From: Nitrospirota bacterium
Lineage (GTDB): Bacteria > Nitrospirota > 9FT-COMBO-42-15 > HDB-SIOI813
Reading direction: 5' to 3'
NCBI GenBank assembly: GCA_020846775.1
Contig: JADLDG010000035.1
Coordinates: 31,569 to 95,568, forward strand
Length of the DNA stretch: 64,000 nucleotides
The notes beneath the pieces were generated by a model that had not been told where the DNA came from, ran no database searches, and saw only the letters and a list, made by a program, of their open reading frames with translations. How positions within the stretch are numbered: the first letter of the stretch is position 1; every line of letters begins with the position of its first letter. Both the position numbers and the translations under genes were made by a program. Below are positions 10,250 through 57,765 of the stretch, piece by piece.

Positions 10250-11191
10250 TTATATTGAAACCCTCATCTTTGCTTTAAAATATTCGATTGTCTTTGTTAG
10301 TCCCTCCGTTAATTCAACTGTCGGTTTCCACCCCAGGACAGAAGTTGCCCTTGCAATATCAGGCTGTCTTACCTTGGGGTCATCTTCAGGAAGGGGTGTA
10401 TTAATTATCCTGCTTTTACTGCCTGTAAGTGAGAGTATCTCTTTTGCCATGCCAACCACCGTCATTTCGTGCGGATTACCAATGTTGACAGGCATTTTAT
10501 AATCTGACATCAATAGCCTGTATATACCATCAACCATATCATCTATGTAGCAGAAACTCCTTGTCTGCAAACCGTCTCCAAAAACTGTTACATCCTCGTC
10601 CCTGAGTGCCTGAGCTATAAAGTTGGGAATAGCCCTCCCGTCCCTTATCCTCATCCTGGGTCCATAAGTATTAAATATCCTGACAATCCTTGTATCTACC
10701 TGGTGGTATCTGTGATATGCCATTGTCATAGCCTCTGCAAACCTTTTTGCCTCGTCGTAGACCCCTCGAGGGCCCACAGGATTCACATTGCCCCAGTAGT
10801 CTTCATTTTGAGGGTGGATTAGCGGATCACCATAAGTCTCAGATGTGGAAGCCAGAAGAAACCTCGCCTTTTTCTCTTTGGCCAGACCAAGAACTTTATG
10901 AGTGCCCAGGGAACCAACTTTTAGTGTCTGAATCGGATACTCCATGTAGTCAAGGGGACTAGCCGGACTTGCGAAGTGAAGTATATAGTCAAGATCCCCC
11001 TTAATATATATATAGTTTGTTACATCATAATTTATGAAAGAAAACCTGCTGCTTTGTATGTGACTTATATTATCCGATGAACCTGTGATGAGATTATCCA
11101 TGCAGATAACCTCATCTCCTCCGGCAAGAAACCTGTCACAGAGATGAGACCCTAAAAAACCTGCGCCGCCTGTTATTAATACCTTAGCCAT
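10250..11191 (-). CDS. NAD-dependent epimerase/dehydratase, UDP-glucuronate decarboxylase (UXS)-like
   Basis: Rossmann motif [18 protein letters not shown] YxxxK catalytic signature is present. Overall similarity to the UDP-xylose synthase family. Confidence 0.75.
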
Positions 11192-39011: not shown

Positions 39012-39428
39012 CTATTGTCCCACCAATTTTTCATTAAGTTCAGATAAACCATTTTTACCTTCTAAAAGAATTGGATTCAATTCATACTCTATAAGGTCCG
39101 CGAGGGTTATCCAATCCTTTCCTTCAAAGGCAGAGAGCATCTCTTTAAAGATATCAATGGATTTATTCCACGATGAAAGGGATTCTGATGAGATTTCGGA
39201 CTGTTCCAGACCATTCCTCAATTCCCTGATAAAATCCATAAGGTCGCTGAGATTGTCCATCAAGCCTGATATTTCATTAAAGACCCTCTCAGTTTGTTCA
39301 ATCCTGAGGGAATTGGCACAATCCATTAATCTGGCGCTGATCTGCCCAATACTCTCACAGGTGCTTATAATGCCATCAGTTATAGCTGTCAATAATTCCT
39401 CCCTTTTCTTAACATCTATGTTTGCCAT
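39012..39428 (-). CDS. hypothetical protein
   Basis: 138-aa acidic helical ORF. Its start overlaps the stop region of the upstream GT9-like gene (39416..39428), suggesting co-transcription with the flagellar modification island. Confidence 0.35.
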   Translation of the reverse strand: MANIDVKKREELLTAITDGIISTCESIGQISARLMDCANSLRIEQTERVFNEISGLMDNLSDLMDFIRELRNGLEQSEISSESLSSWNKSIDIFKEMLSAFEGKDWITLADLIEYELNPILLEGKNGLSELNEKLVGQ

Positions 39429-41134
39429 ACGCCTCTCCCTTCTAATGTTAAAGTGCTATTGTTGTTAAACGGTTCAATAAGCTGAATCATTGCAGAGGTC
39501 TGGATTATAAGATTCTTGTATAAGGTGCATGCTGCACTGGCTAAGACCGCTACGTCTTCGCCTTCAAGACTTTCTCTCCCGAATTTAAAGTAAATCACAA
39601 TGGGACGCAGTGCAATATTAGTAAAACCAATTATATCTATATCCTGATCAATTAGTGGTACATCTGCCCAGATATCTTTAATCTTTGCGATATCAGGATT
39701 TTCCCTCTTAGCCTCTTCCGCTATCAGGCTGACTTTTTCAAGTGCCCTCCCGGCTAATTCCTTAAGGCTCCTGAGTGCATCAATCTCATTACTAATTTCC
39801 CAACCGTTAATCCCTTCTGTCACCACTTTTGAAAAAAGGGATTTATCGGGATGATGGCGTAGCGGGGAATTCTCCGGCACAATGGAAGCAGCATTGTGAT
39901 CAAGGGTCTGCAGCCACACCAGTCTGTACAAGTGACGGAAAAAGTCTTCCCTGGTAATGGGCCTTTTGATCCTTGGTATGTACTCTAATAATCCATCATC
40001 AGAAAAGACGGCCTCATTAACCTGCATACCATCCCATAAAGGGGAGTCATCAACCTCCTTTAAACGACCATCGTTATAAAGCATCTCAATAACCCTGTAG
40101 ACACCATCCACACTGACAGTGTCATTACAGATCATGTCCTGACACTTTACATGAAAGCTGCAAGGGTGACAAGGGAGATTCGACTCTATTACTATATGTC
40201 CTTTCCCATATGGGCCGGTCTCACGGAAATAGGCCGCACCGAGGGAGATTCCTATAACCCTTGTCCCTACGGCCGTCGCAATATGCATTGTACCTGAATC
40301 GTTAGAAACAAGAAGATTACAGCACTTCAGATAGGCAGCAAGCTCCTTCAGCGATGTCTTGCCGACCATATCTATTACATCGCTTCCAACCCCCATCTTT
40401 ATTTCTTCACCCAGCGCCCTTTCGCCGCCTGAACCGAAGACTATAACCTTTGCTCCAAGCCTGCTCGTTAATTTCTTTGCAAGTTCAACATATCGTCCTG
40501 TGGCCCACATCTTATGTCTGTCACTAGCGCCCGGCTGAAATCCTATTACAAAATCACCACCGCTGACCCCCGATTTCCGTAATTGCGATTTAGCGGTATC
40601 AAAGACTTCTTCCGGGACTTCCAGAAAAAGTCCTTTTTCTTTCGGCATGGCCCCACCGGCCTTAATATATATGTCACATAGATGAAAAGGATTGTAAATC
40701 CTTCCAGGGACTATATTGAAGAAATATCTTAACCATGGATGTTTTATAAGGGAATGTCCTTTATTATCAGCAATGTATCCCCTGAACTCTTTAGAGCTGA
40801 CGAGAGACATTATGGCTGCACTCACTGTTGTATGAGTGAAGTTTATCACACAGTCATACCCGACCCTGTTTATATCCTCCAACATCTCTTCCATATACCT
40901 GTATTTGCTGACAAGACCGGGGAACTCACCACGCCCGCCCGCTATGAATCCATCCATATTGAAGCTTATGAGCCTGTCTACAAATGGGATGTAGTTACAT
41001 ATTTCGGCAAAGGCGGAGTTTATCAGCAACGTAATCCTGACATCAGTGTAGGCGTCTTTTAGACCTGCCATCACAGGGGTAGTTTGAACAAGGTCTCCCA
41101 TACGTGTAAGATTGATTATCAGGACATTTTTCAT
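39416..41134 (-). CDS. glycosyltransferase family 9 (heptosyltransferase-like) fused to a roughly 230-aa C-terminal domain of unknown function
   Basis: N-terminal NVLIINLTRMGDLVQTTPV pattern typical of GT9/RfaF-WaaC. C-terminal third has no recognisable motif. Confidence 0.5.
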   Translation of the reverse strand: MKNVLIINLTRMGDLVQTTPVMAGLKDAYTDVRITLLINSAFAEICNYIPFVDRLISFNMDGFIAGGRGEFPGLVSKYRYMEEMLEDINRVGYDCVINFTHTTVSAAIMSLVSSKEFRGYIADNKGHSLIKHPWLRYFFNIVPGRIYNPFHLCDIYIKAGGAMPKEKGLFLEVPEEVFDTAKSQLRKSGVSGGDFVIGFQPGASDRHKMWATGRYVELAKKLTSRLGAKVIVFGSGGERALGEEIKMGVGSDVIDMVGKTSLKELAAYLKCCNLLVSNDSGTMHIATAVGTRVIGISLGAAYFRETGPYGKGHIVIESNLPCHPCSFHVKCQDMICNDTVSVDGVYRVIEMLYNDGRLKEVDDSPLWDGMQVNEAVFSDDGLLEYIPRIKRPITREDFFRHLYRLVWLQTLDHNAASIVPENSPLRHHPDKSLFSKVVTEGINGWEISNEIDALRSLKELAGRALEKVSLIAEEAKRENPDIAKIKDIWADVPLIDQDIDIIGFTNIALRPIVIYFKFGRESLEGEDVAVLASAACTLYKNLIIQTSAMIQLIEPFNNNSTLTLEGRGVWQT

Positions 41135-41137
41135 TGA

Positions 41138-42952
41138 TCAATCCTTCTTCGCAGCAAACTGCTTACCGATCTCATTTATCAATACAAATATCTTATCCAC
41201 TCTCGAAAGTTCACCCACACCGGACGCCATATCATCAACGATATCAGAGATAGTAATAGCTCCTTTATTTCTGAACCGTTCCAGATACCTGCCAAGTTCA
41301 GTATGCCTGTCAGCCTCTGCGATAAGCCCCTCCACATCCTCTTTTCTTGAATCCCATGAAGGACGCTCATATCCCCTTTCAAGGATAAACTCAAACATCT
41401 TTTCCATCCTGTGCTCATAAGTATGTTCTTTTATCACCCTTTCCATTCCTCTTTGCGCTATCGCAGCCATTTCTTCATGATTTTCCAGATAATAGTTGAT
41501 CTTTCTCCTCGCATCAGTGAGATCTTTAAAGCATATAATCTCTTCATCCATATTGAACAGTTCTAACAAATTAGACCGGCAATCAACCAATTGAAAAGAC
41601 CCGCATGCTGCTATTTCAAATGTCCTTGGATTGACAAAATCACCGTGAGGGTTAACCCCTTCGTGATATGTGGAAGAATGGATGTTAATATTTATCTTCG
41701 AAGCATTAAATATCTTTACTGTCTCTTCTGTATCTATCCATTCACCGCCTCTTTGAATATGCCTCAGCAATGGCAGGCCGACATCCCACTCGCTCCCCCA
41801 TATCTTAAGATCAAAATCAAGCAATCCGCTGAAGAAAAACCTCCTGTTATGGTATCCGGCCCCAACAAACGATATATCACTTCCGTAAGTGTCTATTTCT
41901 TCTTTTGTCAGGTAAAGCCTCCGGTGAACTTCCTGAGATGCAGCCATAGGAAGATATGAGTAGTTTCTAACGCCACTCGCATCTAATTTGTCAAAAAACT
42001 GGTCCCTCTGGATGGTGAAGAAATAATCATAAAGGGGCGCTATCCTCTCCCAGTAGTTCATAAACCTGAAGTCCTCAACAAACCAGAAGGCGGTGGGTAT
42101 CCTGTTCTCTTTAAGCTTCTGCAGACTTCCTTCGGTTAAAGGGGCCTGTGCAAGGGCAAAAACGAGGTCTGGCTTAAACTCTGCGCACCGTGCTATGGCT
42201 GCCTCTGACAGAAAGGAGATAAACATGGAGCGCAGTTGATTCTGATGGGCCTTTTCACCTGTTATCCCGGGGATTGACTGAAAGACTTCGTTATACTTAC
42301 TGTTGTCTACATAATCAACCTGATGACCCAGTTTTTTCAAGGCAGAGACGCAGTATCCTGCAACAGGGAGAGAGCCGCCGTAGATCGGCCCTACGACCAT
42401 GATCTTCAAACCACTCTTCACAGTCTGACGTAATCTTAGTTTCTTATGGAGGTTCTTTAAACATGATTCACTTACCATGACAGATGGACTATGCTCTACT
42501 ATTGTAAAGCATTTTGGCAACAACGGTATTTTATCCCCTGTTAACAGTTTCACCCTTGTGAGGACATGAGTTAAATCAAAATGTTCCAGAGCTGTTTTCA
42601 GGATATCGAGCCTTGGCTCATAGACAATTATCTCCATACCTGAAATATTGCAAATATCGAGCTCGCAAAGCCCGGCAACATGGTACCCAAGTCCAAAACC
42701 GAGGACGACAACAGCAGATCCCATTTCAACCTTTTCCCGCTGATATTCAACCCACTTGCCAGCCTCCTTCTCAGGATCATACAGGCTATGCAGGGTGATA
42801 TCCCCTACCTTCAAAGAAAGTTTCCCTGACTTAGATGTATGCAGCTTCAAATCATCACTGACACATGCCTCAATAACTGAAGTTGCAAGTGCAGGGTCAT
42901 ATTTCTTCATGACCTCTAAATTTCTATCGAATATGAGGTTATTGGCAGACAT
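41138..42952 (-). CDS. Maf-like (DUF115/MptE-like N-terminal) - CgeB-like (DUF3880 + GT1) putative flagellin glycosyltransferase
   Basis: N-terminal HSLYDPEKEA and VVLGFGLGYH motifs recur in the paralog at 46778..48460. The C-terminal half resembles the CgeB/YkvP glycosyltransferase-like domain. Confidence 0.5.
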   Translation of the reverse strand: MSANNLIFDRNLEVMKKYDPALATSVIEACVSDDLKLHTSKSGKLSLKVGDITLHSLYDPEKEAGKWVEYQREKVEMGSAVVVLGFGLGYHVAGLCELDICNISGMEIIVYEPRLDILKTALEHFDLTHVLTRVKLLTGDKIPLLPKCFTIVEHSPSVMVSESCLKNLHKKLRLRQTVKSGLKIMVVGPIYGGSLPVAGYCVSALKKLGHQVDYVDNSKYNEVFQSIPGITGEKAHQNQLRSMFISFLSEAAIARCAEFKPDLVFALAQAPLTEGSLQKLKENRIPTAFWFVEDFRFMNYWERIAPLYDYFFTIQRDQFFDKLDASGVRNYSYLPMAASQEVHRRLYLTKEEIDTYGSDISFVGAGYHNRRFFFSGLLDFDLKIWGSEWDVGLPLLRHIQRGGEWIDTEETVKIFNASKININIHSSTYHEGVNPHGDFVNPRTFEIAACGSFQLVDCRSNLLELFNMDEEIICFKDLTDARRKINYYLENHEEMAAIAQRGMERVIKEHTYEHRMEKMFEFILERGYERPSWDSRKEDVEGLIAEADRHTELGRYLERFRNKGAITISDIVDDMASGVGELSRVDKIFVLINEIGKQFAAKKD

Positions 42953-42989
42953 AATTTCCTGAATTATCTTCTTCCTTTTCTCATTAAGT

Positions 42990-43991
42990 CTAAACTATTG
43001 CTTTTGACGAAGCCCTGTTTATTATGCCTTTAAGCCCAATGGCATCACTTCTTTCGGGCTCAAACAGGAGAAGTTTATCTATGCTATCAAGTGCCTTATC
43101 AAGTTGCCCGAGCTTGAAGCTCACATCTGCATGCCGATAAAGAAAATCAGTATCAGCCGGATGATGTACCAAATACTCCTCCAGGATATCAATAGCCTTA
43201 TTGAAATCCTGGGAATCGATTGCTGACATCAGGGTATTACACATCTTTTTATTTCCAGACTTTTCTGCCTTTATCAGGTATTGAATTATAAAGAGATCTT
43301 TAAGTTCTTCATGTGACAGACCTTTCAGATTAACCCTGCCAAAGGATATCTCTCCTGAAAGAGGATCATGCAAGGAACTATAAGCAGGATCAATATTGGC
43401 AGTTATCCCTGTTATCTCATATCCAGCCTCTGTAAACAGGGATTCCATATCTTTCATCGTAAAGAATCTCAGATGGGTTCTATCGAGGATACCCGAGTCC
43501 TGATACTTCCAATGCCCTTCCACCAGCATGTTTAGAACCCCGTAATACCGTACATTCGGAATGCTTGCGACAATAGAACCAGAATCAGCAAGATAGTGTT
43601 TGAATCTCCTGAGTGTTGACAATGGTTCCTTCAGGTGTTCCAGTATGTCGGCAAATATAATACAGTCAAAATAACCATCTTCATATTGAAGTTCCAGACA
43701 CGTCACATCTCCCTTTATAACCCGTGACAGATTCTCATTTGCCCTCTTACTCGCAATTGGATCAACTTCAATACCAACAACTTCTTCAGCCCCTTTTTCC
43801 AGCAGCCTTTTCCCGAGTATACCCTCTCCGCAACCCACATCAAGAATCCTCATGGCTTCCTCGGGCACAAGAGTCTCGACTTCTTTTCTTCCCTGGCGAA
43901 AGTATTCCCTGTCAACAGTCTTATCTAATCCATTTTGCGTCTGACTCCTCGTATCGTTAATCACTTTATCTCCTGCGCTACATGGATACAT
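42990..43991 (-). CDS. class I SAM-dependent methyltransferase fused to TPR repeats
   Basis: SAM-binding motif I ILDVGCGEGILG. Motif post-I/II (DCIIFADILEHL). C-terminal TPR-like repeats. Confidence 0.6.
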   Translation of the reverse strand: MYPCSAGDKVINDTRSQTQNGLDKTVDREYFRQGRKEVETLVPEEAMRILDVGCGEGILGKRLLEKGAEEVVGIEVDPIASKRANENLSRVIKGDVTCLELQYEDGYFDCIIFADILEHLKEPLSTLRRFKHYLADSGSIVASIPNVRYYGVLNMLVEGHWKYQDSGILDRTHLRFFTMKDMESLFTEAGYEITGITANIDPAYSSLHDPLSGEISFGRVNLKGLSHEELKDLFIIQYLIKAEKSGNKKMCNTLMSAIDSQDFNKAIDILEEYLVHHPADTDFLYRHADVSFKLGQLDKALDSIDKLLLFEPERSDAIGLKGIINRASSKAIV

Positions 43992-46767: not shown

Positions 46768-46777
46768 AACCAGCTGT

Positions 46778-48460
46778 TCAGGAATAGCGCTTCTTCATGC
46801 TGTCAATCAGCATCTTTATCCGGTGGACATACGTATGTTCCCTCGAGATCCTTTCTCTTCCACATTCCGATATTCGCTTTCTTTCCTGAGAATTGTTCAG
46901 ATAAAACTTTAAAAGTCCCGGTATCTCCTCCCTGTTTTTATAGGTTATAACCTCTTTCCCTATATCAAAGAGATCACCTAACGCATCCTGATCATCAGTC
47001 AATAGAAATGCACCACATGCCGGGACATCAAAGACCCGCTGATTAACGGCGCTACCCATCTGCAGATTAGTAGCGTTGAAATTTATCTTGCAGGCATTGT
47101 AAAAGCGGGGAAGTTCACTGTAATAGTTTAACGGAGGCCTGATATTGAAATCTCTGCTTAAGAGTTCATGCCAGCCTTTATCCCCGTAAACCCTCGGACT
47201 GTATTCTTTAAGTCTTTCTATGCAAGAGAGTCTGTATATAAGTGTTGATCTCCAGAGAACAGCGGCCTCAAGATCAAGCCTCTCCTGAACAGGAAGGGCT
47301 CTTACTTTTTCTTGCTCATCATTATTCAACATTCTCAATAATTCATCGAAAGACAGATGAGAGGAACCAAGGCGCTGCGATAACCTTTCAGTAATAGAGC
47401 GCAATTTCACTGGTACCTTTTTCAGCTTTTCTGCTGCCGGTTCGACCATAGAGTTGCCTACAAAACCTATGACTGTATTGAATCTGTTTTTATCCTTCTG
47501 ACTTAAATTTAAAGGTTTAAAGACATCAGTGTCCGCTGCAAGTGGCAGGTATTCAACTAACTCAAAACCCATAGCCTTCATATCGTTTATATATCCCTTA
47601 TCCCATAAATAAAGTGAGACATATGGAGATACATTTTTTTCAAAGGCCTTGACTATAAGATTCGGGCTGTCAACATACCACGATGCCACAGGCATCTCAA
47701 TTGATTTTAAAAAAGATGTCAAGACCCCGTCTTCATCAAAGCCAAGATGGTTAATGGTGAGGAGGAAATCCGGTTTGAATTCAAGGATGGTACTCAACAT
47801 GCGCGATACAATGGCCTCCCCATCTTCTCCCTTCTTTAAAGGAACTTTTACGACCTCTTGACCAAGGCGTTTAATAGCGTCTGCCACCTCGGAGGTCAGG
47901 AAATAGCCATAATCTATAAAGGCGATCTTAGTCTTTTCCTCCTTAAACCTTGGGTATCTGAGCCTTTCCCAGAGCCTGACTGATGTTGTGTTTTTTAAGG
48001 AGATAAGGATAGGATTATAGTAGTCTGGCATGGCTGAAACGACCGGAGCCAGGGGAAAGGAGGCAACAGAAGGCATTCCAGACGTTAACTGATACCTGGT
48101 AATCTCTCTTATAGCCGCATCAGAAGTGACTCCGATTATGAATCTAACCCTATCTTCGATCTCTCCCATCCTACCATATTCCTTTGCCAGTCCATACATC
48201 TCATGACTTGATTCAACCACAATAATCCTGGCCTCCGGAAACCTGCGGACAAGCTCCATCAGATGATAACCAAGCCCCAATCCTAATACCACTAATAGCC
48301 CTTTCCCATCAAAATAAAAGGCATCTGCAATTGCCCTGGCTTCTGCCTCGGGGTCATAGAGGCTGTGAAGTGTTTTTAAAGAGCCGTCTTCATACGTAAC
48401 CCTTATTGAATAACTGCCATTTTTCGTTTCTACTAAGGAATGATTATTGATAACAGACAC
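46778..48460 (-). CDS. Maf-like (DUF115) - CgeB-like putative glycosyltransferase, paralog of 41138..42952
   Basis: HSLYDPEAEA and VVLGLGLGYH N-terminal motifs. C-terminal CgeB-like region. Same architecture as the first paralog. Confidence 0.5.
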   Translation of the reverse strand: MSVINNHSLVETKNGSYSIRVTYEDGSLKTLHSLYDPEAEARAIADAFYFDGKGLLVVLGLGLGYHLMELVRRFPEARIIVVESSHEMYGLAKEYGRMGEIEDRVRFIIGVTSDAAIREITRYQLTSGMPSVASFPLAPVVSAMPDYYNPILISLKNTTSVRLWERLRYPRFKEEKTKIAFIDYGYFLTSEVADAIKRLGQEVVKVPLKKGEDGEAIVSRMLSTILEFKPDFLLTINHLGFDEDGVLTSFLKSIEMPVASWYVDSPNLIVKAFEKNVSPYVSLYLWDKGYINDMKAMGFELVEYLPLAADTDVFKPLNLSQKDKNRFNTVIGFVGNSMVEPAAEKLKKVPVKLRSITERLSQRLGSSHLSFDELLRMLNNDEQEKVRALPVQERLDLEAAVLWRSTLIYRLSCIERLKEYSPRVYGDKGWHELLSRDFNIRPPLNYYSELPRFYNACKINFNATNLQMGSAVNQRVFDVPACGAFLLTDDQDALGDLFDIGKEVITYKNREEIPGLLKFYLNNSQERKRISECGRERISREHTYVHRIKMLIDSMKKRYS

Positions 48461-49973
48461 CCTTTGCTAAAATCTCATCTATTTTATTTAATTCCGAAGT
48501 AACTCTGTTGAGGGATTCCGCCTCCAGGTAATACGCTCCTATAGCATCACCCACAGTCATAGCATATATTTTATAAATACATGCTACAAAGTCTTCCTCC
48601 CGGCCGGATAACGTATTATGTCTGGCCAAAAGATATTCGGAAAACTGATTAAGGTAGTTCATGATATTCGGGATCAATATATTCTGTTTAAAATTATACA
48701 TATTTTGGGGGGAGCGAACGGCATTTTCAAACAACATAGAATACAAAATATTCAGGCCCTCGTCTCCCTGTATTCTCATTCTTTTCAAACCTTTTTCTAT
48801 CCCGTCAGGATGCTTATTTATATTCTTCTGAATAGCACTTAGTAGTGATTTTAATGCTGTCATGGGATTGCTGTTCACGGGGTTAGACTCAGAAATTGAG
48901 AGGTTAATAAGGTTATAGGTACCAATAATCACAGCTACTAACTGGTCCCAGGTAATGTTATATCTTGAAAATAAATAGGGCAGTTCGTTTTGCAAAGTAT
49001 GAACATTGGCCTTTGAACCTATACTATGCCGTTTTAATACGTCAACCGCACCCCTTTCATGCCAATGATAAACGCCCGTTGAATTTAAGTAGCCGATAAC
49101 CTTACGTTTGTGCAGGAGTTTTACACCAAAGTCAATATCCTCTGCATTCATCATGGGGGTGAATTTGACCTCTCCAAATATATCCCTTCTCACACATGAT
49201 GAAACGTTGTCAAAGAATGTCAGCCTCCTTTTCGTAGCCCCATCAAATGCCCTCAGGCCTATTCCCCCAATGTCCATCAAGAGGGTGTACATGGAGTCCT
49301 GCTCAAACCCCAGTATTGTACCCAGCAATTCATTCTTCCATAAACTGAAGAGGTCAGCTTCAGGTTTAACAAACTGCTTTGACGAAAGGGCAGCTAATCG
49401 CGGGTATTCGATTAATGGGCATACCATGTTGTAAAGCCAATAATTATTGATAGGAAGAGCGTCTTGCACTGTAAAGACGAGGTAATCACCTGTCGCTTTT
49501 GCAGCCCCTGTATTTCGGGTCATACCATGATTGAATTCCTTCTGAGGGATATCTATAATTACCGCTCCGAACCCGGCAGCTATCTCTTTTGAATTGTCTG
49601 AAGATCCAGAATCGATCACAATAATTTCTATATCATTTACCTTTCTCTGAGACCTTATCATACCGAGTAAACCCTTTAATTTCTCTCCGCCATTATTGAC
49701 CGGTATAATAACTGAGACTTTATCCGCTATGGCAGACGGCCTTGTTCTTACATCAATTGGCGTTATCTCAAAGAGCAGACTCAATGCATTCCGCAGGGAA
49801 TCATCTTTTTCGACCAGTTTATTGCTCAAATCGGATATCGTACGTTCTGCAGCCATTACTTTCTTTAGATATCTTGTGGCTGCTTCATGTTTTTCCTTGA
49901 ATATGCGACTGGCACATTCCAGGGCCCATTCCATCTCCCGCACTTTGTCTTTTATCACCATATCATTTTGCAT
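48444..49973 (-). CDS. family 2 glycosyltransferase with N-terminal coiled coil and C-terminal unknown domain
   Basis: GT-A motifs VSVIIPVNNGGEKL ... IIVIDSGSSDNS ... DxD-like VQD. Confidence 0.55.
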   Translation of the reverse strand: MQNDMVIKDKVREMEWALECASRIFKEKHEAATRYLKKVMAAERTISDLSNKLVEKDDSLRNALSLLFEITPIDVRTRPSAIADKVSVIIPVNNGGEKLKGLLGMIRSQRKVNDIEIIVIDSGSSDNSKEIAAGFGAVIIDIPQKEFNHGMTRNTGAAKATGDYLVFTVQDALPINNYWLYNMVCPLIEYPRLAALSSKQFVKPEADLFSLWKNELLGTILGFEQDSMYTLLMDIGGIGLRAFDGATKRRLTFFDNVSSCVRRDIFGEVKFTPMMNAEDIDFGVKLLHKRKVIGYLNSTGVYHWHERGAVDVLKRHSIGSKANVHTLQNELPYLFSRYNITWDQLVAVIIGTYNLINLSISESNPVNSNPMTALKSLLSAIQKNINKHPDGIEKGLKRMRIQGDEGLNILYSMLFENAVRSPQNMYNFKQNILIPNIMNYLNQFSEYLLARHNTLSGREEDFVACIYKIYAMTVGDAIGAYYLEAESLNRVTSELNKIDEILAKGVCYQ

Positions 49974-49984
49974 TATTTCTCCCC

Positions 49985-51319
49985 TTACGCCAGAAAGGTA
50001 TCATTGATCATTATGGATTCTAAAAAGTCATAATCCACATTTCTAACCTTTGGAGCCATCGCACCTCTATCACTCAAAGACTCTGTATTGTCATCTCCAA
50101 CAATGAGGTTATTGGTTTTATAAAAGTCATATAATGCGCTTCCAGGGACCGGGGTATAAAAGGCAGGGGAAAAATGGACAGGTTTGACCCGTAAAACACC
50201 TTCAACAGTCATCAGATCATCTTCTTTGTGCCATCCGGTATCTGTTGGTATACCAAGGATATAGTTTGCCCAGACCTTTACACCATGTTTATGACAAATC
50301 TCCGCTGCCTTGAAGTTTTGATCTACCGTAACCCCTTTATTGAACCACTTCAATACCCTCGGGCTGAATGACTCAAATCCTACTATCAATAAGAGAAGAC
50401 CTGCAGCTGCCATATCCCCTATGAGTTTATCATTTTTACATATGTTATCAGCCCTGCTTGATGTGACCCATTTAAGACCATATTTCACGATTCCGCTGGA
50501 ATGAAGGGCAGTTATGAACTCTTCAACCCATTTTGGAGATACTATGAACTGATCATCATGGAACATAACGGATTTAATGCCATACCTGTCTATCAGCATC
50601 TTCAGTTCAGCTATGACATTTGACACGCTTCTCCCCCGAATATAAGTTTTTCGAGTCCCGTTTTCTCTTAATTTCGTATAGAGCTGATGCTCTCCAGGCC
50701 CACAACAGAACTTGCATGTATAAGGACATCCCCTTACGTTGATCATCTCAGCCATAGGTAAGGGAAACCTGAAACCAGTTAATCCAAATGGTTCGGAAAA
50801 CATTCTCCTTTTAAAGTCCGGCCAAATTTCCCTTTCCGGGAATGGGATCGTATCAAGATCCGGAGTTTCACCCCAAAAGCATTTAGGGAACATAGACGGA
50901 TCTTCTACCAATTCCACGAAGCTGATTTCTCCTTCACCCTGGATAACATAATCGAAATTGCCGCTATCAATGCACTCCTGCGGGAACATGGTTGGGTGAA
51001 CTCCGCCAGCGACCACAATTACCCCTGGTAAGACCTCTTTGGCTCTTTTGGCAGCTTCCAGAGCTATAGAATATTCTACAGAATGTATGGATATTCCTAT
51101 GAACTCCGGAGAGATAGCCTTTACAACCTGTTCATATTCACTCCAACCTGACAATGTCCTTAAGTCAGCAAGATGAACATCGTGCCCCCTTGCCTTTAAC
51201 GACCCTGCCAGATATGCAAGACCAAGGCGAATGAATGTTGTATCTGGTGATGGTTTGCTTATGTCCGCATTCCATGTGCTATATGCTATTGATGGATTAA
51301 CCAGTAAGACCTTTGCCAT
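49985..51319 (-). CDS. B12-binding domain radical SAM protein (class B rSAM)
   Basis: N-terminal cobalamin-binding-like Rossmann segment. CxxxCxxC cluster motif (CPYTCKFC). Confidence 0.65.
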   Translation of the reverse strand: MAKVLLVNPSIAYSTWNADISKPSPDTTFIRLGLAYLAGSLKARGHDVHLADLRTLSGWSEYEQVVKAISPEFIGISIHSVEYSIALEAAKRAKEVLPGVIVVAGGVHPTMFPQECIDSGNFDYVIQGEGEISFVELVEDPSMFPKCFWGETPDLDTIPFPEREIWPDFKRRMFSEPFGLTGFRFPLPMAEMINVRGCPYTCKFCCGPGEHQLYTKLRENGTRKTYIRGRSVSNVIAELKMLIDRYGIKSVMFHDDQFIVSPKWVEEFITALHSSGIVKYGLKWVTSSRADNICKNDKLIGDMAAAGLLLLIVGFESFSPRVLKWFNKGVTVDQNFKAAEICHKHGVKVWANYILGIPTDTGWHKEDDLMTVEGVLRVKPVHFSPAFYTPVPGSALYDFYKTNNLIVGDDNTESLSDRGAMAPKVRNVDYDFLESIMINDTFLA

Positions 51320-51353
51320 TTGAAGCCTCCATTAAAGAAGTAATTGAATATTT

Positions 51354-52988
51354 TCATTCCAATTGACCGGAATGCTCCCTGCACTCTTTAAATGACCTTA
51401 ATCCGCTTCCCCTGATGAGTTTTATTGTCTCTATTCTTTTAGGTGTCAGCCATGCATCCCTGACAGACATCTCTGTTATATTTGCTTCTGGCTTATCCCA
51501 GGCACCGGCTTCGCATGGGCAAAGCACCACGTCACCATCCGTTGTTATCGCCATCTCATTTTCTATGAAATAGCACAGATTGAAATTTGGCACCTCTTGT
51601 GAGACTTCAGCATCCATTTCCCCTCCTCTTATCCTGTATGCCGGGAACTGAACCTTATTAATGCCCAATTTTTCAAAATAATCTGTAAATTCCTTTCTAC
51701 TTTCAGACATGGTTAGAGGGAGTTGAATCTTTGTCACCCATACATCAGTTTTTGAGTTAAGTCGTTCTCTTATGGAGAGGAAGTTTTTAATATTAGTTAA
51801 AACTACATCAAGATCCAGACCCCGTCTTATCCTTTTGTATAAATCTTTATTCAATGTATCTATAGAAAATACGACAATATCAACATTTCCATCCAATAAC
51901 TGATTTGCCTTATACGTATCCAATAAATATCCAGGCGTCGCTATCCAGTTTTCAAATCCAAGTTTTTTTGCTCTCTTCATAAACCTGTATATCCTGTCGT
52001 CATACAATGGATCATTAATCCACTCCCAGTTTATTTTACACTTCCAGTCAACTTCATCAAAGATTTTATCAACCAGCCTCTCTGGCATCAATTTGTTTTT
52101 TCGTTTTTTTAAAACCATTTTCCTGGGACACATCAAACAACTCGAGGGACATCCAATAGCTGTTTCGAGAGAAAAATATGTGGGCAGCAAAATAGATTTA
52201 TCCAGAATATCCGCACAATCCTCCGAATTAGTACACTTATTGAAAGTATCTGCCTCGTCCTGAGTTAGTCTGATCTTTGAATTATCAGTTTTGATAAAAT
52301 ATCTGTCTTCAACTTGCCTGTCATCTTTCGTCTTATATGCAATGCTTACTTCATGGATACCATCTATCAGAACCAGCGTATTTATGTAAAACCTAAATCC
52401 GCTGCAGCTTGAGTTATTTATGTCGGGATAGATCAATGCGACATCATCCCTCTGCAACCCATATTCTGCCCGCAACAAGTGCCTGCCATCAACATATACT
52501 TCGATAGATCCAATGCCTGTAATGGATATCGCCCATCCTTCAAAGCGCTTGATACCCTGAAGAGGTTGGAGCAATTCCGGCAAATCAAGATGTCTGTGAA
52601 CATTCTCCTCAATTTCAAAATCCTTGTAAATTTTCTTGCATATTTCACGGAGATTAATTGTAGCCTCCGAATATGCAGGGGCCAAATCCAGCGCCTTTGT
52701 GAACTGAAATATTGCATCTATAGACTTTCCTTTAATAAATAAACACGCCCCGTAATTATTTCTTATCTCCGGATTATCCGGATACCTCTCTGTCAAATAC
52801 CCAAATATCCTTTCTGCCTCATCAAATAATCCTGATCCATATTTCCCCATGGCTTGTTCCATCAAGGTAAAATCCTCTGAATTGATATTAAGACCTGCCC
52901 TATGACTGTTGTCTAACATGAGTAAACGACTCCAAATGGTATCTTCTTGACTCCCGCCGCAGTTTAGACGCAGAGGAGTGACTGACAT
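51354..52988 (-). CDS. TPR - radical SAM / SPASM-like domain protein
   Basis: N-terminal TPR. CxxxCxxC motif (CPSSCLMC). C-terminal Cys-rich auxiliary-cluster-like segment (CYFIENEMAITTDGDVVLCPCEAG). Confidence 0.55.
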   Translation of the reverse strand: MSVTPLRLNCGGSQEDTIWSRLLMLDNSHRAGLNINSEDFTLMEQAMGKYGSGLFDEAERIFGYLTERYPDNPEIRNNYGACLFIKGKSIDAIFQFTKALDLAPAYSEATINLREICKKIYKDFEIEENVHRHLDLPELLQPLQGIKRFEGWAISITGIGSIEVYVDGRHLLRAEYGLQRDDVALIYPDINNSSCSGFRFYINTLVLIDGIHEVSIAYKTKDDRQVEDRYFIKTDNSKIRLTQDEADTFNKCTNSEDCADILDKSILLPTYFSLETAIGCPSSCLMCPRKMVLKKRKNKLMPERLVDKIFDEVDWKCKINWEWINDPLYDDRIYRFMKRAKKLGFENWIATPGYLLDTYKANQLLDGNVDIVVFSIDTLNKDLYKRIRRGLDLDVVLTNIKNFLSIRERLNSKTDVWVTKIQLPLTMSESRKEFTDYFEKLGINKVQFPAYRIRGGEMDAEVSQEVPNFNLCYFIENEMAITTDGDVVLCPCEAGAWDKPEANITEMSVRDAWLTPKRIETIKLIRGSGLRSFKECREHSGQLE

Positions 52989-53065: not shown

Positions 53066-53461
53066 TCAGATGCTTATGCTTATAGTGGAGCCATTCTGAT
53101 TACATTTATTATGACGGGAAAATAATTTAAAGTTCTCAAGAACACTTATCTGGTCCAATAAAGAAGCCATTTCTAACTGAAGTGTATTCTTCATCTCATT
53201 GTTACGGGTCAGAATTTTCTCGATGTTTATAACCATCTCCCTTGAACCATTATTACGGTGATTATGGGCCTCCTCATTCAATGGGAGTAACTGTGTATTC
53301 ATTACTTCTCTGTCAATATTTTGGATGTCATCAATAATTCTCTGACGTTTTTCGAGTATTTCTAACGCCTCATCAAACCTTTCATCCCGAAGTGCATTTA
53401 ACTGATCCTCTGCCAGTCCAAGCAGTTTTTTGTACAGACTTAAGACTCTTTCACTACTCAT
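53066..53461 (-). CDS. putative flagellar export chaperone FliT-like protein
   Basis: 131-aa helical protein immediately after fliS (4-nt overlap), in the fliD-fliS-fliT position of Bacillus-type operons. No diagnostic motif. Confidence 0.3.
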   Translation of the reverse strand: MSSERVLSLYKKLLGLAEDQLNALRDERFDEALEILEKRQRIIDDIQNIDREVMNTQLLPLNEEAHNHRNNGSREMVINIEKILTRNNEMKNTLQLEMASLLDQISVLENFKLFSRHNKCNQNGSTISISI

Positions 53462-53874
53462 ACCCTCAACTCCATCCCTGCAGAAACTGCCTCTTTTGGA
53501 ATATTAACAATGTTATTCTTGCCAATATCTTTCCATGCAGATCGTAATACCTCGAGGACCTTAACAGCATCGTCAAGCGCTTTTTCGTCGTTCTTCATAT
53601 TGGCTGTTATTAATCTGTCTAAGACAAAATCATAGAGCCTGCTCAGATTTTTAGCGATCTCCCCGCCTGCCTCCATGTTGATCGAGCTTAATAGCTCCCC
53701 AACCACTGAGGAAGCCTTTCCTATATAAAGCCCCTTACCTGCGATGTCACCAAGCTCTATTCTCTTCCTTGCAACCTTGATAAAATTGATGGCCCCATCA
53801 TACATCAGGGAAATGACTTTTACACTATCGGAAGTATTCACTTCTGCCTTCCTGTAATCTGACACTTGTTGCAT
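53458..53874 (-). CDS. fliS: flagellin-specific chaperone FliS
   Basis: VISLMYDGAINFIKVA pattern. 138 aa. Position after fliD. Confidence 0.8.
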   Translation of the reverse strand: MQQVSDYRKAEVNTSDSVKVISLMYDGAINFIKVARKRIELGDIAGKGLYIGKASSVVGELLSSINMEAGGEIAKNLSRLYDFVLDRLITANMKNDEKALDDAVKVLEVLRSAWKDIGKNNIVNIPKEAVSAGMELRV

Positions 53875-53895: not shown

Positions 53896-55293
53896 TTACT
53901 GTGAATTCCATTTTGTAATCTGATTATTCAGAAATGTCCCCTGAGAAGTCAGTCCATTTAGCAGTGATTCCAATGCCGAAAATCGTCTCCGCAGATCATC
54001 TTCTACTTTCACCAATCTTGTTTCAAGAGAAGTTATATTACTTGCAATATTATTGACAACAGATTGAAGACCGCTTTTCCTTATGGTCAGAGCTCCGTCG
54101 GTTGATTTTGTGATAGTGTCAGCGTAACTCCATATCTGATTGGCTATGCCGGTAGTGGCAGTTGCAAATAGTTTGGACACATCGTCAATCCTAGCTGAAA
54201 GCTTGTCGCTCAATGTCGTGCTGTTAATCGTTAGTGTCCCATCCTTTGAGTTAGTAGTTATGCCTATCCCTGCGAGTGAATCTACATCAGATGAAGCAGC
54301 TGAAACCGTGCCTATTACCATTGCCTTCATGCTTCTAACCACATCCCTTGCCGTCGCATCACCGAGTAAGGGACCTCCAGTCTTGGTAGTGCTGTCCCAT
54401 GAAGACTTCGAAGCGGCATAATTTATAGCATTGTTATATGCCGTTACAAAGTCCTCGATCTTTTTCTTTATCGAGTCTGTATCATTTGTAACCGCAACAG
54501 TAGCAGAGCTTGTAGATTCCTTTTTAAGGGTAAGGGTTAAACCTGATATTACACCTGATACGTTATTTGAACTGCTTGTAATGTCAATGCCGTTAATCCT
54601 GAGTTTGGCATCCTGGGCGGTCTGATTAGTGGTAAAGGCGCTGCCGGTTAAATCTACTGTACTGCCTGTGCCATCCAGGGTTGTTCCGGAATCGATACTG
54701 ATAGTCTTTGTGCTGCCGCTATCATTACCGGTTAGCGCCAGCTTGTAAACAGAACCATCATATATTATTGTAGCATTAACCCCGGGATTACCAGAGTCGC
54801 TATTGATAAGGTCCCTAAGTCCCTCAAGAGTAGTTCCGTCTGCGACGGTGATGGAACTCTGGGAGCCTGCATAGGTATATTGAAATATTTTATCAGAGCC
54901 GCTGCTGTTAACGCTTGTATTGATGGCAGCAGTCCCAGCAGTATGCGATTTCTGCTCTGACTGGGCGAGCTGTATCTTACCTGCGGTGGAATGAGATGCT
55001 ATCGTATAGCTCCCGGCAGGTGCAGAGTTCGTAGCCGATGCATCAAGGATAGTGCTATCACTGACTGATGCCTTTTTTGCAAAAAAGTTGGATGTTGTCC
55101 TCAATTCATCAGCAGCAGTCTTTAATGACAAGATCTTTGATTGAAAGTCACTATAAGCCGTTATTTTATCGTTGTAGGCCGTCTGTTTGCTTTGAAGCAG
55201 GGTCACCGGACGACGCTCCAACTCCATCAGCTTGGTTATTATATCATTTGCGTTAATGCCGGAACTAAGACCGGAAACAGAAAAAGTAGACAT
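53896..55293 (-). CDS. fliD: flagellar filament capping protein FliD
   Basis: N-terminus SGLSSGINANDIITKLMELERRP is a typical FliD sequence, with a C-terminal coiled coil. 465 aa. Confidence 0.85.
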   Translation of the reverse strand: MSTFSVSGLSSGINANDIITKLMELERRPVTLLQSKQTAYNDKITAYSDFQSKILSLKTAADELRTTSNFFAKKASVSDSTILDASATNSAPAGSYTIASHSTAGKIQLAQSEQKSHTAGTAAINTSVNSSGSDKIFQYTYAGSQSSITVADGTTLEGLRDLINSDSGNPGVNATIIYDGSVYKLALTGNDSGSTKTISIDSGTTLDGTGSTVDLTGSAFTTNQTAQDAKLRINGIDITSSSNNVSGVISGLTLTLKKESTSSATVAVTNDTDSIKKKIEDFVTAYNNAINYAASKSSWDSTTKTGGPLLGDATARDVVRSMKAMVIGTVSAASSDVDSLAGIGITTNSKDGTLTINSTTLSDKLSARIDDVSKLFATATTGIANQIWSYADTITKSTDGALTIRKSGLQSVVNNIASNITSLETRLVKVEDDLRRRFSALESLLNGLTSQGTFLNNQITKWNSQ

Positions 55294-56917: not shown

Positions 56918-57370
56918 CTATGGATTGGAGACAGGAATATCTTGTAATAATGGATAGCGAAGTGGATATTTATCATCTAAGAGGACAAACTGTTTTGCCT
57001 CTCCCGTCTTCAGATTTACAATAAGCGGTCCCTGGAGATTTGCTGTCATCATCTCTGGCATCTCATGGGGTATAGTTACAATTACAAATATGCAGCAGTC
57101 GGCGAGGCCGTTCATATTAAGTTCCCGCAAGACGTGCTCATCTATTTCACTATTATAATCAGGACATAAGAGCAACGGATCTATTACCACAAATACCAGA
57201 TCAGGTTCATTAACAGCCTGAAGCCATTTGAATGGTATATCAGGGTTATTCATATTGTCTAATAAAACGTAGTGTTTTACATCAGCAAAGCCAAGCAGAC
57301 CACTGTGAAATATGATAACCTTGTCTTCGTCTATCTCAATTTCGCCAAATCTGGATGTATAGAGTTTCAT
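56918..57370 (-). CDS. fliW: flagellar assembly factor FliW
   Basis: 150 aa. N-terminus FGEIEIDEDKVIIFHSGLLGF typical of FliW. Adjacent to csrA and flagellin. Confidence 0.85.
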   Translation of the reverse strand: MKLYTSRFGEIEIDEDKVIIFHSGLLGFADVKHYVLLDNMNNPDIPFKWLQAVNEPDLVFVVIDPLLLCPDYNSEIDEHVLRELNMNGLADCCIFVIVTIPHEMPEMMTANLQGPLIVNLKTGEAKQFVLLDDKYPLRYPLLQDIPVSNP

Positions 57371-57428
57371 TGGCCCCCTCTCTCACCATACACCCTCACT
57401 CTCAGGTGAAAGGGTTAGAAGTGAGAAG

Positions 57429-57674
57429 TTATTCATGTCCTTTTTTATCCTCTGTCCAAAGTTTGAAGAGTCTTTGCAGATTCTCAGCAGTTAAAGATGC
57501 TGCCTTTATGTTTTCTGCTTTAATCTTTTCATAAACCTCGTCGCGATGAACCTGTGTATCCTTTGGGGCCTCAATCCCAATCCTGACCTGATTCCCATGA
57601 ATCTCCAGGATTACAACCCTTATATCTTCTCCAATTCTTATCCCTTCATCTGACTTCCTTGTCAGAATTAACAT
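57429..57674 (-). CDS. csrA: carbon storage regulator CsrA (FliW-partnered type with C-terminal extension)
   Basis: [20 protein letters not shown] ... [19 protein letters not shown]. Start set at MLILTRK. Confidence 0.85.
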
Positions 57675-57765
57675 CGCAGCCCTCCGTGGCATTAGGTTTA
57701 TGCTGTATCCATCTCCCCGATTAATCAGTTCGGCAATGACATAAAAGCATCGGTATCATATCATA

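Follow-up and report, generated by a model that had tools for sequence, protein, structure and literature searches.

The locus described here, part of a 64,000-nt stretch of Nitrospirota DNA (the window), raises the question of what a radical SAM enzyme fused to a TPR module does among late flagellar genes, and on what kind of substrate. To our knowledge, nearly all work on flagellin glycosylation has concerned Pse/Leg-type systems, which combine classical nucleotide-sugar enzymes with Maf or FlmG transferases, and our literature searches for radical SAM enzymes in flagellin glycosylation, and for CgeB in connection with flagellin, returned nothing relevant. The original prediction was that the enzyme may modify the flagellin polypeptide or a FliS-bound export intermediate rather than a sugar. 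Our analysis favours a different substrate: with a probability of roughly 0.6, the protein is a radical tailoring enzyme that forms an optional component of a flagellin O-glycosylation pathway.

The ORF (hereafter, the target) was confirmed on the minus strand, with a longest reading of 544 aa (Table 1). Its true start is probably M24, at position 52919, which would give a gene of 51354..52919 and a protein of 521 aa, because the NCBI annotation and all orthologues begin there and a GGAG lies 10 nt upstream of this ATG. The gene is the next one downstream of the FliT-like ORF, at a distance of 77 nt, or 146 nt from the likelier start. Its position directly after fliS/fliT-like genes, as first described, is solid with respect to fliS, whereas the FliT match is sub-threshold; GlfM, to which the small protein may be similar, itself resembles FliS/FliT by HHpred. 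The target comprises four modules: some three TPR repeats are followed by a Big_7-like Ig sandwich and then the radical SAM core, with an auxiliary-cluster domain at the C-terminus. Pfam, phmmer and the AlphaFold model bore out the earlier calls of a radical SAM domain, a SPASM/twitch-like tail and a TPR.

Table 1. Features of the flagellar island in the window, by descending position; the modules of the target follow its entry.
Feature	Position	Strand	Remarks
Flagellin, 284 aa	55764..56618	minus	Presumed final glycan acceptor; Ser/Thr-rich central segment
fliD, filament cap	53896..55293	minus	Conserved; FliD-annotated counterparts in L001 and L020
fliS, flagellin export chaperone	53458..53874	minus	PF02561, E 2e-35
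FliT-like small helical protein, possibly a GlfM-like adaptor	53066..53461	minus	FliT E 0.0025, 19 bits vs 29.5
Target ORF	51354..52988	minus	TPR / Ig-like / radical SAM / Twitch enzyme; 544 aa as longest ORF
TPR-like module	52623..52880	minus	Residues 37-122, ~2.5-3 repeats; phmmer, helical hairpins in the model, translation checked
Ig-like beta-sandwich, Big_7-like repeat unit	52284..52601	minus	Residues 130-235; model strands 131-234
Radical SAM partial TIM-barrel core	51648..52187	minus	Residues 268-447
CPSSCLMC motif	52128..52151	minus	CxxxCxxC, predicted ligands C280/C284/C287 of the SAM-cleaving [4Fe-4S] cluster; invariant in family
Twitch-type auxiliary-cluster domain	51381..51575	minus	Residues 472-536; Cys472-x12-Gly-x4-Cys490, Cys492, Cys536 invariant
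B12-binding radical SAM partner	49985..51319	minus	PF02310 + PF04055; most conserved cassette gene
GT2 glycosyltransferase, 509 aa	48444..49973	minus	PF00535; obligate partner, beside or fused with B12-rSAM
CgeB/Maf-like glycosyltransferase	46778..48460	minus	DUF3880 + Glyco_trans_1_2, weak Maf_flag10_N; candidate flagellin glycosyltransferase
GT2-GT4-methyltransferase fusion, 929 aa	43978..46767	minus	TPR-like C-terminus
SAM methyltransferase	42990..43991	minus	C-terminal TPR_19
Second CgeB/Maf-like glycosyltransferase	41138..42952	minus	
GT9-family glycosyltransferase	39416..41134	minus	Last island gene

The catalytic core belongs to the radical SAM superfamily by both profile and fold: PF04055 scores 46 bits (E 6e-12) against a gathering score of 29.5, and the model adopts the partial (beta/alpha)6 TIM barrel. 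The CPSSCLMC motif, present in the translation where it had been reported, places CxxxCxxC at residues 280-287, and this motif is invariant in the 12 tight-family and 23 wider-family sequences, as well as in a 38-sequence alignment. At the position of the GGE motif, the alignment gives G-E-P-L in the wider family and an invariant W-I-N-D/E-P-L in the tight family, in which the acidic residue is retained and the glycines are replaced.

A Cys-rich C-terminal segment, beginning with CYFIENEMAITTDGDVVLCPCEAG... at 51575, is likewise present, and of the two kinds of auxiliary-cluster tail with which it had been compared, SPASM and twitch, the second proved apt. A full SPASM domain carries a seven-Cys motif (CX9-15GX4C, a gap, CX2CX5CX3C, a gap and C) and two auxiliary clusters. 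On the target, the SPASM profile PF13186 reaches 22.6 bits against a gathering score of 21.5, which is barely above the threshold, and alignment reveals the first half of the motif, C472-x12-G-x4-C490. The CX2CX5CX3C element, sought by regex and alignment in the tight and wider families, was found in 0 of 35 sequences, which rules out a full SPASM domain; since every family member lacks it, the tail is a Twitch-type domain with one predicted auxiliary cluster. The Twitch domain, a truncated SPASM with a single auxiliary cluster (PMC9012708), was recognised by CX9-15GX4C around a beta-hairpin, followed by a helix and further Cys ligand(s), amounting to one cluster's worth. The target displays precisely this Cys, hairpin, Cys, helix, Cys topology: its tail contains exactly four Cys (472, 490, 492 and 536), all of them invariant, with the half-motif as CX12GX4C, and in the core model (core numbering) strands E214-217 and E222-224 lie between C208 and C226, while helix 252-264 precedes C272. 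Judged by its conserved residues, the family is an unnamed, compact Twitch subfamily with an unusual predicted ligand arrangement, C-x17-C-x-C ... C.

Among characterised proteins, BtrN (2-deoxy-scyllo-inosamine dehydrogenase of the butirosin pathway; PDB 4M7T) is the archetypal Twitch radical SAM enzyme, and the Twitch hairpin of the target, between C472 and C490, aligns to it. The two proteins share 18% identity (27 bits, E 2e-5 by profile), and the last two ligands of BtrN form a CxxC after the helix, whereas in the target family a CPC follows the hairpin directly and just one distal Cys remains. In addition, BtrN has no TPR or Ig extension and acts in a non-flagellar antibiotic pathway. 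Membership of the target in the BtrN (DOIA dehydrogenase) family was rejected in view of the weak score and of a context that is flagellar and glycosyltransferase-rich, with no aminoglycoside cluster. Two further sugar-modifying radical SAM enzymes, BlsE (cytosylglucuronate decarboxylase; PDB 7VOB) and DesII (PDB 8HZV), show 15% identity, operate outside glycoprotein pathways and are devoid of TPR or Ig modules. Fold comparison with the full-length AlphaFold model (pLDDT 70.7) gave generic radical SAM matches only, and with the core model (pLDDT 91), sugar-acting and peptide-acting enzymes scored within about 2 Z units of each other.

The N-terminus contains a TPR repeat domain, albeit a short one of about three repeats. 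All Pfam TPR models stay under their gathering scores on the target (19-23 bits); phmmer matches the region to consensus TPR (CTPR) proteins (E 5e-8) and to the OGT TPR domain (E 9e-8), the AlphaFold model forms helical hairpins at residues 37-122, and precomputed TPR_16/TPR_2 matches are on record for the orthologues P0003 and P0004. Binding of flagellin through a TPR, which the original prediction considered, has experimental precedent in other proteins and was demonstrated for FlmG (PMC7591256) and Maf-1 (bioRxiv 10.1101/2023.12.03.569772). FlmG of Caulobacter and Maf-1 of Shewanella are TPR-bearing flagellin glycosyltransferases, with GmaR of Listeria being a related case, and the target resembles the first two in joining a catalytic domain to a TPR module and in being the product of a flagellar locus. 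However, its catalytic domain is a radical SAM domain instead of a glycosyltransferase, and its TPR is short and followed by an Ig domain. By analogy with FlmG and Maf-1, the TPR-Ig part of the long form possibly serves for docking, the most plausible partner being flagellin or a complex bound to it.

Between the TPR and the catalytic core lies an Ig-like domain of about 105 aa, absent from the original prediction. It gives three alignments with the tandem repeats of P0012, a protein that carries PF17957, and Foldseek relates it to the sandwiches of sulfite oxidase, SoxZ and Fn3; a sequence search of the PDB yielded no match to this domain. BLAST detected no paralogues of the TPR and Ig parts in the other island proteins or in the rest of the window.

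The genes surrounding the target have the makeup of a flagellin glycosylation island, with glycosyltransferases, including CgeB/Maf-like ones, embedded in the same orientation among the genes for flagellin, FliD and FliS. The intergenic spacing between fliS and the GT9 gene ranges from -17 to +77 nt and is operon-like; promoter and terminator scans of the island gave no excess over shuffled sequence and are therefore uninformative on the operon boundaries. The Maf_flag10_N matches on the CgeB-like glycosyltransferases are weak (22 and 35 bits, the gathering score being 23.5), and the orthologues of the first of these proteins in the cassette loci are 38-52% identical. The GT2 of the cassette resembles the GT2 domain of GmaR (E 3e-7), with chondroitin synthase also among its PDB matches. 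No Pse/Leg or other nucleotide-sugar biosynthesis genes were recognisable in 39416-52988, the sole epimerase/dehydratase in the window (10250..11191) being located about 30 kb away; in lacking genes for pseudaminic or legionaminic acid synthesis, the island differs from the FlmG and Maf-1 systems.

The core formed by the B12-binding radical SAM enzyme (B12-rSAM), the GT2 and the CgeB/Maf-like glycosyltransferase was found in flagellar loci in four independent contexts, namely the window, L001/L010 of the Acidobacteriota, L020 and L022. In L001 the island is inserted between fliS and motAB, and in L022 it precedes flbD-motAB and flaF-flbT, so the flagellar link noted for the window is real and recurs in another phylum. 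An rSAM-SPASM gene that occupies the equivalent position in L022 was rejected as an orthologue of the target (29 bits). Such a cassette could also build or tailor a non-flagellar glycan, for example a polysaccharide of the envelope or the glycan of an S-layer or other glycoprotein, with the flagellar adjacency reflecting genome organisation only. Three of the seven long contexts (L011, L019 and L021) contain the B12-rSAM/GT2 core and show flagellar genes nowhere within 10 kb of it, L021 adjoins rmlACD and RgpF-type rhamnan genes, distant twitch relatives are encoded beside Wzm/Wzt O-antigen-type exporters, and GT9, represented in the island, is the heptosyltransferase family. Nevertheless, we consider a non-flagellar glycan unlikely, given that the core lies within late flagellar operons at four independent loci from at least two phyla, that its gaps are operon-like, that the CgeB-like proteins do match the Maf N-terminal domain, however weakly, and that TPR fusions are typical of cytoplasmic flagellin-modifying enzymes; moreover, the window island contains no flippase, ABC exporter, polymerase or initiating phosphoglycosyl transferase.

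The target family itself is rare: a set of 5.8 billion proteins contains only about 12 clusters of it, which come from Nitrospirota and Acidobacteriota, and pattern scans added just two loci in genomes and four in metagenomes; because of this rarity, the statistics of its flagellar linkage are thin. Its company, on the other hand, is constant: wherever the contig is long enough, the gene adjoins those for the B12-rSAM, the GT2 and the CgeB/Maf-like glycosyltransferase. The distant relatives occur as fusions with a Hexapep acyltransferase, a methyltransferase, a PMT_2 GT-C or a B12-rSAM, and their loci are glycan-assembly clusters (Wzm/Wzt, AglB, GT2/GT4, methyltransferases).

These associations speak against the original prediction, in which the TPR would dock on flagellin or a FliS-bound intermediate and the enzyme would act on the chain by radical chemistry, for example an epimerisation, an oxidation of hydroxyl or C-H groups or a C-C/C-O crosslink. 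The precedent of FlmG and Maf-1 is compatible with the docking part of this proposal; as for the chemistry, we find a polypeptide substrate improbable. The target-family gene was never encountered without glycosyltransferases and B12-rSAM, the wider family resides in glycan clusters, and the TPR-Ig extension is dispensable, being missing in genuine short orthologues, whose N-terminus is only about 30-55 residues long, with some 45 residues ahead of CxxxCxxC. Furthermore, the flagellar island L020, a close relative with a flagellin of 62% identity, possesses the core and is devoid of the twitch enzyme. The flagellins, with 25-27% Ser+Thr in their central regions, contain neither Cys nor Trp, so sactionine/ranthionine thioethers and Lys-Trp crosslinks are impossible; epimerisation, or a different alteration of the flagellin backbone or side chains, keeps a low probability. 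The radical SAM-SPASM maturases of RiPPs (SuiB, CteB, ChlB and PqqE), as well as anSME, hold two auxiliary clusters by means of the seven-Cys motif, whereas the target lacks its CX2CX5CX3C part, and the RiPP enzymes are accompanied by an RRE domain and a neighbouring precursor gene, neither of which was found with the target: Pfam and NCBIfam detect no RRE (PqqD-like) domain in it, and the flanking gaps of 77 (or 146) nt and 34 nt leave no room for a precursor-peptide gene. The same holds for L004, where the gene of the target family runs into the GT2 gene ahead of it and another glycosyltransferase gene follows within 15 nt.

Curated families did not provide a name for the target, as every NCBIfam match is far under its cutoff. 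The top match is TIGR04317 (tungsten-cofactor oxidoreductase radical SAM maturase; E 1e-21), followed by the spiro-SPASM and Geo-metal maturase families, and a corresponding role in cofactor or metalloenzyme maturation is all but refuted by the score (77 bits, whereas the curated cutoff is 380, with all 38 relatives matching the same generic models sub-threshold and TIGR04317 at 77-80 bits) and by the gene context, which includes no oxidoreductase or cofactor genes nearby in any locus.

Returning to the tailoring of a flagellin glycan as the preferred reading, we infer the substrate class, the reaction type and the role of the TPR as follows. As a radical SAM enzyme of the cytoplasm, the target would carry two iron-sulfur clusters, of which the CxxxCxxC cluster would cleave SAM to produce the 5'-deoxyadenosyl radical, and this would abstract hydrogen from one of the carbons in a sugar unit. 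The radical so formed on the substrate may then be resolved with the Twitch [4Fe-4S] cluster (predicted ligands C472, C490, C492 and C536) acting as the electron acceptor, so that the sugar would be oxidised, decarboxylated or epimerised, in the manner of BtrN and BlsE. In this task the target would work together with the conserved core, and, since the island is devoid of classical nucleotide-sugar modification genes, radical chemistry probably substitutes for them. Judging by its absence from L020, the twitch enzyme behaves like an optional tailoring step. If the N-terminal TPR-Ig part docks on flagellin, the sugar may be tailored after its transfer to the protein. That the long form uses this part to dock on flagellin or a flagellin-chaperone complex, and performs its radical chemistry on a protein-bound O-glycan or a side chain, is a more tentative proposal, which we regard as possible and yet somewhat unlikely.

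Should the glycan-tailoring reading be correct, uncultured Nitrospirota, Acidobacteriota and related lineages would use two radical SAM enzymes and two glycosyltransferases, conserved as a set in their late flagellar operons, to decorate filaments with sugars derived by C-H activation, for example keto, deoxy, C-methyl or epimerised ones. The TPR-Ig-rSAM fusion would extend the principle of TPR docking on flagellin from glycosyltransferases to a radical enzyme. If docking on a protein-bound substrate also holds, this would be the first known radical SAM enzyme acting on a flagellar filament protein, and together with the B12-rSAM::GT2 partner it would constitute a flagellin glycan pathway of Nitrospirota/Acidobacteriota that relies on radical chemistry, not on classical nucleotide-sugar enzymes. 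For radical SAM enzymology, the family offers a Twitch subfamily with a defined biological context in which to search for the substrate.

The B12-rSAM partner is 62-79% identical across the cassette loci, and its best PDB relative is AprD4 (radical SAM 1,2-diol dehydratase; 6FD2; E 5e-8), followed by TokK and MgmA, which are class B B12-dependent radical SAM methylases. Its NCBIfam matches to AprD4, HpnR, BchE and the P- and C-methylase families are sub-threshold, all of them far under the cutoffs. We propose that the partner is either a C-methylase or an AprD4-like dehydratase. Unlike the characterised enzymes of the AprD4, TokK and MgmA type, it is fused to the GT2 in several genomes and elsewhere forms a sulfotransferase::B12-rSAM fusion.

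The TPR/radical SAM enzyme encoded beside the late flagellar genes probably acts in glycan tailoring within a flagellin glycosylation pathway, a reading to which we assign a probability of about 0.6. The open reading frame of the original prediction (544 aa) and its radical SAM assignment both stand, the latter with a Pfam Radical_SAM match of 46.4 bits (E 6e-12; gathering score 29.5), and corrections concern the start codon, an overlooked Ig-like domain and how the Cys-rich tail is classified. Because the NCBI annotation of an identical protein ('radical SAM protein, Nitrospirae bacterium MAG') and all orthologues start at M24, with GGAG 10 nt upstream of its ATG, the true gene probably encodes 521 aa. 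The protein consists of four modules: TPR, Ig-like, radical SAM barrel and C-terminal domain. Several Pfam TPR models match, each below its gathering score, and the TPR call is supported by phmmer matches to consensus TPR proteins (E 5e-8) and the human OGT TPR domain (E 9e-8), by TPR_16 and TPR_2 matches on record for orthologues, and by helical hairpins at residues 37-122 of the AlphaFold model. The Ig-like region can be aligned, three times over, to tandem repeats in P0012, a protein that carries PF17957 (Big_7). Two genuine short orthologues, P0009 (310 aa; its gene overlaps the GT2 gene before it at the stop codon) and that of locus L011 (325 aa), lack both TPR and Ig, and the N-terminal TPR-Ig extension is therefore accessory.

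The tail had been likened to SPASM/twitch auxiliary clusters, and the twitch half of this comparison holds. C280, C284, C287, C472, C490, C492 and C536 are invariant over the ten closest homologues, and the tail contains exactly four Cys in the tight family (the enzyme and its close orthologues). A regular-expression search of 12 tight-family members and 23 more distant relatives recovered the CX12GX4C half-motif in all 35 sequences. CX2CX5CX3C, the motif for the second auxiliary cluster in full SPASM domains, occurs in none of the same 35, ruling such a domain out; the Pfam SPASM match is marginal (22.6 bits versus a gathering score of 21.5). Modelling the core alone from a 36-sequence alignment gave a confident structure (pLDDT 91.2, pTM 0.89) with the expected Twitch topology of Cys, beta-hairpin, Cys, helix, Cys. 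Motifs and model thus identify the tail as a Twitch-type domain, predicted to hold one cluster, as defined in PMC9012708. In the tight family, the usual SAM-binding G-G-E-P-L is replaced by an invariant I-N-W-E-W-I-N-D/E-P-L (residues 319-330); position 329 is Cys in nine of ten members and Tyr in the window protein.

Features of the window and of the loci fetched for comparison (nt, unless residues are indicated)
Feature	Locus	Position	Strand
Island gene 1, radical SAM/Twitch enzyme, full ORF	window	51354..52988	-
Same gene from M24 (probable)	window	51354..52919	-
CPSSCLMC	window	52128..52151	-
Cys-rich tail, CYFIENEMAITTDGDVVLCPCEAG...KEC	window	51381..51575	-
TPR	enzyme	residues ~37-122	
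Ig-like beta-sandwich	enzyme	residues ~130-235	
Radical SAM barrel	enzyme	residues ~268-447	
C-terminal auxiliary-cluster domain	enzyme	residues 472-536	
FliT-like helical ORF, 131 aa, between fliS and island	window	53066-53461	-
Island gene 2, B12-binding radical SAM (B12-rSAM)	window	49985..51319	-
Island gene 3, GT2	window	48444..49973	-
Island gene 4, CgeB/Maf-like GT	window	46778..48460	-
Island gene 5, 929-aa GT2-GT4-methyltransferase-TPR fusion	window	43978-46767	-
Island gene 6, methyltransferase-TPR	window		-
Island gene 7, second CgeB/Maf-like GT	window		-
Island gene 8 (last), GT9	window		-
csrA-fliW pair	window	56918-57692	-
Hybrid GAF-PAS histidine kinase with receiver domain	window	36674-38755	-
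B12-rSAM::GT2 fusion	L001	6939-9821	
B12-rSAM::GT2 fusion	L003	151-3051	
B12-rSAM::GT2 fusion	L008	1651-4545	
Second rSAM-SPASM gene	L008	514-1635	
Second rSAM-SPASM gene	L011	5675-6916	
Two adjacent multi-rSAM giants	L012	4247-13936	
Free TPR protein, 68 aa	L019	9769-9975	
Free TPR protein, 184 aa	L020	7608-8162	
Free TPR protein, 336 aa	L022	7974-8984	
P0190, Sulfotransfer_1/B12-rSAM fusion	L020	10001-12064	

The family is rare. Among 5.8 billion proteins, about ten clusters exceed 48% identity to the enzyme; a profile search of 1.84 billion representatives gave 18 matches below 1e-30, adding a few members, and pattern scans recovered two loci, in an Acidobacteriota and a Nitrospiria MAG, from 185,579 species genomes and four from JGI metagenomes. 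No NCBIfam model reached its cutoff for the enzyme or any of 38 relatives, the best being TIGR04317 (77-80 bits versus 380). Outside the tight family, 4611 matches below 1e-10 form a large, looser group of radical SAM/twitch proteins, 300-350 aa long, with the same invariant Cys and Gly. Many distant relatives are fused to hexapeptide acyltransferases (~598 aa); in others the fusion partner is a methyltransferase, a PMT_2 GT-C domain, or additional radical SAM and B12 modules. The three distant-relative contexts examined are all glycan-assembly clusters, and none of the three bears a peptide-maturation signature. L014 combines Wzm/Wzt and Wzt_C with GT2, GT4 and methyltransferases; L013 has AglB/STT3, GTs and Wzm/Wzt; L012 has GT2/GT4, an ABC transporter and multi-rSAM proteins of giant size. 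The L012 giants (1917 and 1311 aa; Candidatus Kaelpia imicola, JAVCCL010000026.1) both have a striking architecture in which several modules of radical SAM/SPASM type are chained with B12-binding ones.

When the window's proteins were searched by tblastn against every fetched locus, orthologues of the enzyme always adjoined, where the contig was long enough, those of B12-rSAM (62-70% identity), the 509-aa GT2 (30-35%) and the 560-aa CgeB-like GT (38-52%). In the Acidobacteriota MAG (L001/L010), these genes and one for a DUF8042 protein make up the whole island, inserted between flagellin-fliD-fliS and flbD-motA-motB. B12-rSAM and GT2 are 11 nt apart in the window and fused into a single protein of 960-966 aa in three loci; this Rosetta-stone fusion ties a glycosyltransferase to a radical SAM enzyme of class-B-like type. 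Two loci, L008 and L011, carry with the cassette a further rSAM-SPASM gene of another kind (373-413 aa), which has strong Pfam SPASM matches and is absent from the window.

In the window, the minus-strand late flagellar cluster (flgI, flgM, flgN, flgK, flgL, csrA, fliW, flagellin, flaG, fliD, fliS, FliT-like ORF) is followed by the island, with gaps of -17 to +77 nt between consecutive genes. Promoter and terminator pattern scans gave no excess over shuffled sequence and are therefore uninformative. Genes for nucleotide-sugar synthesis, a flippase, an exporter or an initiating transferase are all absent from the island. Of the fliS/fliT-like neighbours originally proposed, fliS is solid (PF02561, E 2e-35), whereas the FliT match is sub-threshold (E 0.0025). 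GlfM, a small helical specificity factor for Maf-2, has been reported to resemble FliS/FliT by HHpred, and the FliT-like ORF, like a 119-aa ORF in the same slot of L020, could be a chaperone or a glycosylation adaptor. Domain shuffling among island enzymes is extensive: the 929-aa protein has GT2, GT4, class I methyltransferase and a TPR-like C-terminus in a single chain, and L004 encodes a 1026-aa GT4/CgeB-GT/methyltransferase fusion in a different order.

As a probe, B12-rSAM revealed a much larger family (68 matches below 1e-80, 60-79% identity) in Nitrospirota, Thermodesulfobacteriota and 'Deltaproteobacteria' MAGs. Four close homologues (P0190, P0194, P0197, P0199; 687-704 aa, 76-79% identity) are fused to Sulfotransfer_1, P0190 within a flagellin-fliD-fliS island devoid of the twitch rSAM. 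Four long contigs were compared. L020 repeats the window layout of flagellin (62% identical), flaG, fliD, fliS (55%), small ORF and island, and has no orthologue of the enzyme, whose slot is taken by a sulfotransferase, a free TPR protein and a 374-aa protein. L022 has a free TPR protein, a 322-aa rSAM-SPASM (ruled out as an orthologue at 29 bits), B12-rSAM, an MT::GT2 fusion and a triple-GT2-TPR protein, then flbD-motAB and flaF-flbT. L019, a complete Nitrospiraceae genome, encodes a TPR mini-protein, B12-rSAM, GT2, CgeB-like GT and GT4, with no flagellar genes within 10 kb; in L021, the core sits in an rmlACD/RgpF polysaccharide cluster. From these contexts, the invariant core pairs B12-rSAM with GT2, the CgeB-like GT is usually present too, and the twitch enzyme is an optional accessory of the core. 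Of the seven long contexts, four place this core in a flagellar locus. A TPR element recurs just upstream of B12-rSAM, free or fused, and in the window it is fused to the twitch rSAM.

Counting for a sugar substrate are the constant co-occurrence of the enzyme with glycosyltransferases, the fusion of its partner radical SAM to GT2 or sulfotransferase, the glycan clusters of its relatives, and the optional, 'tailoring-like' distribution of the gene with its dispensable TPR-Ig. Pointing the same way, BtrN and BlsE have the same one-cluster Twitch architecture, B12-rSAM matches the sugar diol dehydratase AprD4 (E 5e-8), and GT2 matches GmaR, the GlcNAc transferase for Listeria flagellin (E 3e-7). 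Less probably, the enzyme acts on the flagellin polypeptide rather than a sugar, as originally proposed, by epimerisation or side-chain oxidation; in fold, enzymes that modify peptides lie just as near. FlmG binds flagellins through its N-terminal TPR, which glycosylation requires (PMC7591256), and the C-terminal TPR of Maf-1 plays the same part (bioRxiv 10.1101/2023.12.03.569772). By analogy, flagellin docking by the enzyme's TPR is plausible, and equally compatible with tailoring of a sugar already attached to flagellin; that the docked enzyme performs radical SAM chemistry on a flagellin-bound substrate seems to us rather doubtful. A RiPP-like or crosslinking role on flagellin is disfavoured, as the enzyme has no RRE domain, there is no room for a precursor gene, and the flagellins of the window and L001 contain neither Cys nor Trp.

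For glycan tailoring, the C280/C284/C287 cluster would cleave SAM reductively, and the resulting 5'-deoxyadenosyl radical would take a hydrogen from a carbon of the sugar. Oxidation or rearrangement of the substrate radical could follow, with the C472/C490/C492/C536 cluster as putative electron acceptor, a role also proposed for the auxiliary cluster of BtrN. The product might be handed to the B12-rSAM/GT2 pair, or the substrate received from it, and the CgeB/Maf-like GT would be the likely flagellin transferase. We are far less sure of the specific reaction type than of glycan tailoring itself. The fold class and cofactor logic are already known; new are the rare, unnamed subfamily with its C-x17-C-x-C...C ligand pattern, the fusion of a twitch radical SAM to TPR and Ig modules, and membership in a radical-SAM-rich flagellin glycosylation cassette, on which a literature search found nothing.

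Residues 316-349 of the window GT2 gave a summed phmmer match to TAL-effector repeat proteins (E 4.8e-12); it covers a single 34-residue stretch, none of the matches passes individually, and it is probably an artefact of one segment matched to many repeats. A hybrid histidine kinase is encoded just past the island's GT9. Directly upstream of the flagellin gene lies the csrA-fliW pair, in keeping with the FliW-CsrA-flagellin partner-switch arrangement.
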